Origin: Naegleria gruberi | Taxonomy: Eukaryota | Assembly: GCA_000004985.1 (NCBI GenBank) | Contig: GG739133.1 | Reading direction: 5' to 3' (one strand) | DNA: 7,142 bases | Shown: in pieces, positions 5,892-7,142 of the stretch | Numbering within the stretch: position 1 is the first letter of the stretch | Layout: each line of letters opens with the position of its first letter | Notes under the pieces: model-generated | Databases searched by the model: none | What the model was told of the DNA's origin: nothing | Seen by the model: only the letters and a program-made list of their open reading frames with translations | Made by a program: the position numbers and the translations under genes

Positions 5892-6711
5892 TTGTCGTCT
5901 TGGCAAGTTTGTAACTCAGTGGGAGAGTTACAACTTCAACCCATTCATAGTGGATTGGATTCGGAATGGAGTTCCAATCTACTCAAATCCCACCCTTTGG
6001 AAAGAATTCAAGCAAAGGAAGAATTTCTCTCCAAAGGAGACCTCTTGGATGGATCAAGAAATCCAAGAGATGTTGAGTTCCAATGTCATCGAACTTGGAA
6101 ACAAATCTACGGTACTCAATCCAATAAACATTGTCCCCAAGAAGGGCTCAGATCAGTTTCGTTTTATTCTGGATCTCAGGAAAGTAAACTTGGGGATCAA
6201 GGATACTTCGTTCAAGATGGACAACATTCAAAAATGTTTGAAGTTTGTTCAGAAAGGAATGTGGGCAACAAAGATAGACCTGAAGAAAGGCTATTTTCAT
6301 GTTCCCATCAGAGAGAGTCATCGACACTTTCTGGGATTCAAGTACAAGAGCCTTGTATACCAATTCAAATGCCTTCCATTTGGTCTAAGTCAAGCTCCCA
6401 GAAACTTCACCAAGATAATGAAGGAACTAGTGACCAAGTGGAGAAAGCAGGGCATCTTGGTATTCATTTACATCGACGATATATTGATTCTAAGCAACCA
6501 CAAGGAAACTACCCAACAACACACAGAGATAATCTTGAAAGACCTAGAAACATTAGGATGGATTATACAGAAGGAGAAAAGTGTGTTGACACCTTGTCAA
6601 TGCATAGAATTTCTGGGTCTGGAATTGGATTTAATATCAGGTTTGGTAAAAATTCCACTCAACAAACAAGCCACTGCGATAAAACTGATCCAAGACTTCT
6701 TGTCAAACTGA
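5892..6711 (+). CDS. Reverse-transcriptase fragment of a second, unrelated retroelement of DIRS-like or Ty3/gypsy-like (retroviral-type) lineage. It is open from the gap edge and stops at TGA 6709-6711.
   Basis: The frame is open from 5893. The motifs are W-x-x-x-G-V-P-I (DWIRNGVPIY), IVPKKGSDQFRFILDLRKVNL (VPKK...R.I.D.R.LN), KIDLKKGYFHVPI (motif A), YQFKCLPFGLSQAPRNFTKIM (LPFGL..AP..F, motif B), VFIYIDDILILS (YIDD, 6469-6480) and IEFLGLELD...KQATAI (FLG/thumb). The segment is about 40% GC against about 27% for the surrounding element. Confidence 0.8.
5892..6711 (+). mobile_element. Internal fragment of an LTR/DIRS-type retrotransposon. No LTR, ITR, PBS or RNase H is visible. It is nested in, or juxtaposed to, the L1-like element.
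   Basis: There is RT-only coding with distinct base composition. It ends abruptly within about 20 bp after the thumb motif, where an AT-rich L1-like frame takes over. Confidence 0.6.
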
Positions 6712-7142
6712 ATACAGCAAGAGTGGTACTCTCATCCAAAATACTATCTATCCCAAGATACCTCTGTGGTATCGGAGGAATCCCATTAACAACACTAGGA
6801 AAATTAGAAACAAGACTATCTGGAATAATTAAAAGGAAAATGGGATGGGATATTAGACTATCAAAAGCAATAATATACGGGGACAAAACTCAAGGTGGAT
6901 TTGGAATTACCTCACCTAAAGACATATATCATATCGAACAATGTGCATCCATTACTCGTTTTGTCAACTCCACATCAAATATAACCAAATATACGATAAG
7001 AAATAGTATTCTAGATGTAGAACAAGGATTAGTTGACGATAATTTTTTACAAGAATATATTAACACTCTAAATGATAACTACTGGTATTGGGTAGAACCA
7101 AGAAATACCGAAAACTCATCAGACTGGAGTTTAGTGAAGACC
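6712..7142 (+). CDS. Open reading frame in frame 0, with no stop from 6540 to the window end. It is probably the resumption of the L1-like ORF2 (post-RT thumb/C-terminal region) and continues beyond the window.
   Basis: There are 144 stop-free codons in roughly 70% AT sequence, which is very unlikely by chance. Its composition and codon usage match the 3344-4512 RT part. Its motifs are SKILSIPRYLCGI (compare L1 SKRIKYLGI), KTQGGFGITSPKDIYHIEQCA (compare L1 KAGGITLPDFKLYYKA) and NYWYWVEPRN...SDW (compare L1 AWYWYQNR..DQWNR). The spacings differ from human L1, so the assignment is tentative. It is absent from the ORF track because it has no in-window stop. Confidence 0.45.

Follow-up and report, generated by a model that had tools for sequence, protein, structure and literature searches.

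A truncated DIRS-like pol fragment abuts the ORF2 of an L1-clade retrotransposon beside an assembly gap and may lie nested within a single TRE-like copy

The retrotransposons of Dictyostelium provide the background against which the locus described here is viewed. [quoted passage not shown] 2020, PMC7192593), and for the repeat regions of D. discoideum it was stated that 'most elements are highly fragmented' (Glockner and Heidel 2009, PMC2665215). As integration targets, DIRS-1 is reported to favor its own copies, and TREs are hardly found where DIRS elements abound (PMC5006619, PMC2665215). The non-LTR retrotransposons TRE5 and TRE3 are defined by their distance from a tRNA gene, about 50 bp on its upstream or about 100 bp on its downstream side (PMC5633606). 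In the more distant amoebozoans that were examined, Physarum and Acanthamoeba, no TRE-like elements were found (Spaller et al. 2016, PMC5006619).

The DNA analyzed here, a stretch of 7,142 nt referred to as the window, contains a direct join between sequences of two such element classes: a DIRS-like reverse transcriptase (RT) fragment and, following it on the same strand, the post-RT region of a non-LTR ORF2. This junction had been described in the original prediction as the passage from a DIRS-type RT into an L1-like ORF2 within a chimeric retroelement. The observation itself was confirmed, and the reading placed upon it was partly supported.

The whole window is very AT-rich and its coding regions are Asn-rich. 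At its left end, the 5′ end of a host-type gene is located on the minus strand (1-475), recognizable from its translation of 158 open codons, which is Ser/Gly/Asn-rich and starts with an ATG at 475-473. The homology search with the N-terminus of this gene gave no match because the query is of low complexity. The gene forms the left flank of the non-LTR element. Only 42 nt (476-517) separate its ATG at 475 from the divergently oriented ATG of ORF1 at 518, and the non-LTR element, which is placed in the promoter region, is therefore either almost without a 5′ UTR here or slightly 5′-truncated. The 7.1-kb window was also searched for RNA genes, resulting in no tRNA gene detected by ARAGORN and no Rfam match at E≤1 over its whole length.

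The first open reading frame of the non-LTR element, ORF1 (518-1882, plus strand, taken from the ORF list), encodes 454 aa with an Asn-rich N-terminus and a coiled-coil-like C-terminal part, for which the Pfam search gave weak coiled-coil matches only. The poly-Asn N-terminal region is encoded by a long imperfect (AAT)n / AAT-AAC tract at 540-760, which is also the source of most repeat families in the repeat search of the window. The TAA stop codon of ORF1 (1880-1882) directly abuts the ATG of ORF2 at 1883 (TAAATG), with neither spacer nor overlap, an arrangement that may be relevant to the translation of ORF2.

Before the gap, ORF2 is present on the plus strand in two parts. Part 1 (1883-2833) covers an APE-like endonuclease region with a match to Pfam Exo_endo_phos (E=7e-4) that is under the gathering cut-off. 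Part 2 (3347-4512) carries the RT domain up to ...LLYADDIIVLSETASE and matches Pfam RVT_1 with E=2.6e-28, covering profile positions 2-164 of 205. The reading frame is then cut by an assembly gap of 1379 N at 4513-5891 (...YADDIIVLSETASE, 4510; last called base 4512). Thus, the two-ORF layout is present, with ORF1 followed by an ORF2 with RT and a weak endonuclease match, and on the evidence of these domains the upstream element is assigned to the L1-clade, TRE-like (APE plus RT) non-LTR retrotransposons. The closest ORF2 relatives in the protein collection are 41-56% identical, and part 2 shows 48-50% identity to P0058, P0059 and P0061.

The two parts are separated by a secondary insertion of about 510 bp at 2834-3343, which was found by the inverted-repeat search and by inspection of the sequence. 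It is bounded by terminal inverted repeats (GAGCCTTGTCCGAAA... / ...TTTCGGACAAGGCTC) of 28 nt that are 86% complementary and include a perfect 15-nt core (GAGCCTTGTCCGAAA), and it is flanked by an AAT duplication (2831-2833 and 3344-3346). The element has a G + C content of about 39%, contains no long ORF and is itself interrupted in its middle by a gap of 88 N (2968-3055). Together with one copy of the AAT duplication it comprises 513 nt, so that the removal of 2834-3346 restores the ORF2 frame. ORF2 joined in this way across the 510-bp insertion is collinear with P0062 over 661 residues (40% identity, E=2e-138), the alignment crossing the excision site. This is a clean, unambiguous secondary insertion into ORF2; the inserted element could be a MITE-like DNA transposon, perhaps of the thug type.

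The protein P0062, which follows ORF2 from the endonuclease through the RT, is annotated from Willaertia magna. W. magna is a heterolobosean and not a dictyostelid. The occurrence of such a protein there could be due to a wider distribution of these elements, to horizontal transfer or to contamination.

On the other side of the 1379-N gap, a DIRS-like pol fragment begins with the first called base and extends on the plus strand from 5892 to 6704, as delimited by the RVT_1 match and the alignments. It comprises the pre-RT region and the RT motifs (YIDDIL) and reaches into the thumb. The corresponding frame from 5893 is open for 272 codons (5893-6708), ends with ...FLGLELDLISGLVKIPLNKQATAIKLIQDFLSN and is closed by a TGA at 6709-6711; it matches Pfam RVT_1 with E=2.4e-26 (93 bits at a cut-off of 29.6). 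The best match of the fragment is P0001, with 90% identity over 75% of the fragment, followed by matches of 55% and 54% and then many of 33-45% identity, and alignments with pol proteins cover 92-96% of its length. In these alignments the relatives extend past the end of the fragment into the rest of the thumb and the RNase H, and the fragment is therefore truncated inside the thumb, in agreement with the original prediction, which had placed the cut there, ahead of the RNase H. RNase H and methyltransferase-like domains are absent 3′ of the RT, where the non-LTR ORF2 follows instead.

The class of the left half was determined from the alignments and from the layout of the locus of a more distant relative, P0009 (34% identity). 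In this locus (L001 5001-7870, an ENA contig), the RT ORF is followed by a 197-aa ORF with a weak Dam methyltransferase match (E=0.005) and then by a 246-aa ORF with a Phage_integrase match (E=1.3e-6, 28.8 bits, cut-off 27.1). The order of RT, Dam-like ORF and tyrosine recombinase is, as far as these matches indicate, that of the DIRS architecture, and the left half of the join is classified on this basis as a DIRS-type RT. For the tyrosine recombinase, neither an ORF nor a Pfam match could be found in the visible window; as the gap lies upstream of the RT, such an ORF could only be located outside the window. Likewise, the repeat search detected no inverted or split terminal repeats and no internal complementary region near 5892-6711, though the gap may conceal a left repeat.

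The right half of the join, part 3 of ORF2, is delimited by alignments to 6705-7142 on the plus strand. It starts with KLNTARVVLSSKILSIPRYL..., includes the motifs GGFGITSP and NSTS, and lies in a frame that is open from 6690 to the window end at 7142. This tail shows 56% identity to P0063 over 145 residues (E=3e-57) and 48% identity to P0058 (E=4e-37), which bears out its proposed identity as the post-RT region of a non-LTR ORF2. With the downstream part of the DIRS-type pol P0009 there is no similarity (best E=3.6). A simple frameshift within one DIRS pol, which the original prediction had named as a finding that would overturn it, was considered and rejected, since the tail is unlike the DIRS pol and resembles the non-LTR ORF2.

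The homologies on the two sides are significant, belong to unrelated element classes and meet within about 15 nt, an arrangement far from anything expected by chance. The join lies inside both genes, as had been proposed, and neither a direct or inverted repeat nor an LTR or an A-run could be detected at it by the repeat search and in the sequence. It had been added that a normal retrotransposition insertion would not look like this, which is overstated. In 5′-truncated L1-type insertions the 5′ junction is likewise without LTR, ITR or poly-A, and often shows a few bases of microhomology.

From the alignments and the sequence, the breakpoint between the two halves is placed within 6690-6705 and probably at 6702-6705, where the two elements may share a few bases of microhomology. 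The ORF2 homology begins at KLNT (aaa at 6705), and two residues before KLNT a Leu that is conserved in four of four relatives is replaced by Val in the window. On the other side, the similarity to the DIRS proteins plausibly extends as far as ...IQDFL (about 6702). ORF2-side bases (aaa ctg aat) supply the TGA at which the DIRS frame ends, two codons past the break. An earlier start of the ORF2 homology at 6690 via 'PR' (PRLLVKLNT compared with PRHL-RLNT in P0058) was rejected as too weak, the residues further upstream being mismatched. Upstream of the breakpoint, frame 0 of the tail contains no stop over a further 55 codons or more (6540-6704); this stretch lies inside the DIRS sequence and shows no ORF2 similarity. 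Since this frame stays open across the breakpoint, an ORF caller would overextend the tail ORF into the DIRS fragment.

A drop of the G + C content from about 40% to about 30% had been reported at the join. The fall is real, from 39.8% (5893-6699) to 34.0% (6705-7142), but 30% is not reached and there is no step at the join itself. In 60-nt windows the G + C content remains at 38-42% up to about 6800; maximum likelihood places a weak change point near 6784. The G + C content at third codon positions (GC3) is 0.49 in the DIRS piece compared with 0.25 in the tail. GC3 is thus a usable compositional signal here, and total G + C content a poor marker of the breakpoint.

The account of a chimeric retroelement as an entity of its own did not include the relation of the tail to the ORF2 upstream of the gap. 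In the relatives, the position corresponding to the end of the pre-gap ORF2 and the one corresponding to the start of the tail are 89 (P0063), 90 (P0058), 87 (P0059) and 91 (P0061) residues apart. The identities before the gap and in the tail are 65% and 56% for P0063, 50% and 48% for P0058, 48% and 47% for P0059, and 48% and 38% for P0061, resulting in the same ranking on both sides. Furthermore, strand and order are the same for the pre-gap ORF2 and the tail, and the GC3 of 0.26 in part 2 is close to that of the tail. The ORF2 stretch missing between parts 2 and 3 amounts to about 0.27 kb, which fits within the 1379-N gap. In three of these relatives (P0058, P0059 and P0061) a Cys/His motif is located at the C-terminal end, beyond the part matched by the window; a zinc-finger domain, 3′ UTR and A-tail of the present copy would accordingly lie past 7142.

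This collinearity argues for one interrupted non-LTR copy rather than two fused elements. The tail would be the continuation of the ORF2 starting at 1883 and not the beginning of a new element. The left junction is hidden, and physically the RT and the post-RT region are separated by the gap and the DIRS piece, so that their continuity in one ORF is suggested by the 87-91 aa spacing of the relatives. For a second, independent copy to match in family, orientation and position would be a coincidence of about 5%, as a rough estimate. The proposal of a separate chimeric element is therefore not supported. Among the explanations offered with it, a nested, rearranged insertion whose left end lies in the gap is the one favored by the collinearity of ORF2 across the gap.

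With moderate confidence, we consider the locus to be a single TRE-like copy, its ORF2 running off the right end of the window, that is interrupted by a nested, truncated DIRS-like fragment, the join at about 6703 being the right breakpoint of this fragment. The ORF2 would then have been disrupted twice by other mobile DNA, at one site by the 510-bp inverted-repeat element and at another by the DIRS-like fragment; the unambiguous insertion at 2834-3343 marks the same ORF2 as an earlier target. The DIRS-like fragment would sit between ORF2 codons about 705 and about 795, in the same orientation, and its left end would be hidden in the 1379-N gap together with about 0.27 kb of ORF2, unless this was deleted. 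If the gap size is about right, the fragment would measure at most about 1.9 kb, of which 0.81 kb are visible and at most about 1.1 kb lie in the gap. The length of DIRS-1 is 4.8 kb, and the inserted piece would therefore be a fragment on any reading.

In the proposed history, a DIRS-like copy or cDNA would have entered ORF2 and would now lack its 3′ part, that is, the RNase H, the methyltransferase-like region, the recombinase and the terminal repeat. The identities of both halves, the truncation of the DIRS part and the missing terminal structures are observed directly, and for the origin of the fragment we infer two possible routes. The DIRS-like element may have integrated into ORF2 and later lost its 3′ part by a deletion repaired by end joining, or a partial DIRS cDNA may have been captured during the repair of a double-strand break. 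By analogy, the abundance of DIRS fragments described in the literature would fit a nested fragment. Given the preference of DIRS-1 for its own copies and the scarcity of TREs in DIRS regions, a DIRS piece in a TRE-like element is not the usual pattern. Against a nested fragment also stands that the join is only 0.8 kb from the gap, in a repeat-rich stretch where assembly errors concentrate. No function attaches to the junction as such, at which the DIRS frame just meets a stop codon.

A junction shared by several copies, which would have indicated a propagating element, could not be found. The junction 24-mer across 6696-6719 had no match in the metagenome and viral contig collections, a 29-mer from the DIRS side had none in the metagenomes, and no record was returned when ORF1, the first ORF2 piece and the truncated DIRS ORF, the last with either of two possible starts, were looked up by exact sequence, in collections that probably lack this genome. 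In the protein collection, no near-identical protein was found for any part of the window, identity to the best matches reaching 90% in the DIRS part and 56% in the ORF2 part. The collections therefore very probably do not contain this genome, and the negative results are weak.

An assembly or scaffolding artefact, in which the join came from a clone or read of mixed origin or from a repeat contig extended in error and the real ORF2 is uninterrupted or interrupted differently, is less likely in our view but the main rival to a nested fragment. The DIRS part is only 0.81 kb long and located at the very contig edge that borders the 1379-N gap, both partners belong to repeat families, and a second gap (the 88 N) occurs in the other inserted element. 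In D. discoideum, gaps in repeats were partly spanned by transposon consensus sequences, and extra sequence or another order of contigs is stated to be possible there (PMC2665215). That neither the junction nor the truncated DIRS ORF was found a second time would also agree with an artefact, although this weighs little given the collections that were searched, which probably do not include this genome. However, the join is located inside contiguous called bases and not at the gap, and a contig is normally supported by several reads across such a position. Moreover, an artefact gives no reason for the shared orientation or for the collinearity of the tail, though scaffolding guided by ORF2 would explain the latter.

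The remaining alternatives accept the join and explain the tail or the DIRS piece differently. The tail could belong to a second, 5′-truncated non-LTR copy that was inserted into the RT thumb of a DIRS element situated beside or within a copy of the same family. The join looks exactly like the structure-less 5′ junction of such an L1-type insertion, and elements that target tRNA genes are known to insert more than once at one site (PMC5006619). Nevertheless, this history is quite improbable, as it needs the same family, the same strand and a truncation point 87-91 codons past the position at which the upstream copy is lost in the gap. In addition, the 1.4-kb gap is too short for the remaining ORF2 of at least about 1.3 kb, the 3′ end and the DIRS sequence, and the window holds no tRNA gene. 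Very improbable is template switching, in which the non-LTR RT, during target-primed reverse transcription, would have followed its own RNA as far as about 6705, changed to a DIRS RNA for about 2 kb and then returned or ended. Both parts share the transcriptional orientation, as such chimeras require, but any model predicts this in half of the cases. The visible coding parts are all stop-free, and the event is therefore recent. The succession of ORF2, DIRS piece and ORF2 with little or no loss of ORF2 could stem from a double switch, yet this also presupposes a return to almost the position that was left, no second copy was found in the collections searched, and the diagnostic flanks are located outside the window or in the gap. 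The DIRS RNA would also have been entered internally. In L1-type chimeras such as U6/L1 the acceptor RNA is entered at its 3′ end or close to it. That the non-LTR RT switched to the DIRS RNA and back within a single retrotransposition, leaving a TRE-like copy with a DIRS pol segment, is likewise very improbable; if true, this double switch would directly show that an RT can change templates between two retrotransposon classes in a dictyostelid, and it would be a possible source of mosaic elements.

Read as a nested, truncated fragment, the locus represents a structure of an already known kind, ordinary repeat debris or possibly an assembly error, and carries little biological weight: one damaged transposon would lie within another, and neither function nor propagation is indicated. 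For the annotation, the ORF2 pieces 1883-2833, 3347-4512 and 6705-7142 are to be entered together as a single, interrupted element, with the DIRS piece marked as a fragment, and the surroundings of the 1379-N gap merit a flag for assembly checking. Moderate interest would attach to the locus only with a structure confirmed by long reads and a second precise switch point at the left junction in the gap.

Among the known systems, retrotransposon cDNA of yeast Ty1 is captured at chromosomal double-strand breaks. Such a capture would give an internal fragment without terminal repeats, end-joined at arbitrary positions, like the piece seen here; to our knowledge, no case of cDNA capture at breaks has been described for DIRS elements or from dictyostelids. 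The locus shares with the U6-L1 chimeras a head-to-tail join of two transcribed sequences that are unrelated but equally oriented, the 3′ side being a 5′-truncated non-LTR part. It differs from them in that the acceptor is entered internally and not at its 3′ end, and in that non-LTR sequence is also found upstream of the foreign piece; flanking duplications and an A-tail belonging to the chimera as a whole are not visible in the window.

The non-LTR element resembles the TRE5 and TRE3 elements of the dictyostelids, as judged by their descriptions (PMC5633606, PMC5006619), in its two ORFs, in an ORF2 with an endonuclease-like N-terminus and an RT, in its AT-rich composition and in its Asn-rich coding sequence. 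A Cys/His motif of the kind described for the zinc-finger domain of the TREs closes the relatives of the tail. Composition, element types and the literature together suggest a dictyostelid origin of the window. In contrast to TRE5 and TRE3, it has no tRNA gene within 7.1 kb of window, and its closest proteins reach only 41-56% identity. The 5′ flank of the element is the start of a protein-coding gene and contains no tRNA gene, and the 3′ flank lies outside the window, so that a TRE3-type position is possible.

The comparison of the DIRS-like piece with DIRS-1 holds by class only, its best database match being 90% over 75% of the fragment. In Dictyostelium, DIRS-1 fragments are mainly found in clusters of DIRS, DDT and Skipper elements, from which TREs are almost absent, whereas the recipient here is a TRE-like element beside a host gene. 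In other respects the locus is like the nested transposable elements of the Dictyostelium repeat regions (Glockner and Heidel 2009, PMC2665215; Malicki et al. 2020, PMC7192593): a truncated DIRS-type pol would lie inside another element, the break is without terminal structures, the host element carries a further insertion, and the assembly around it is ridden with gaps.
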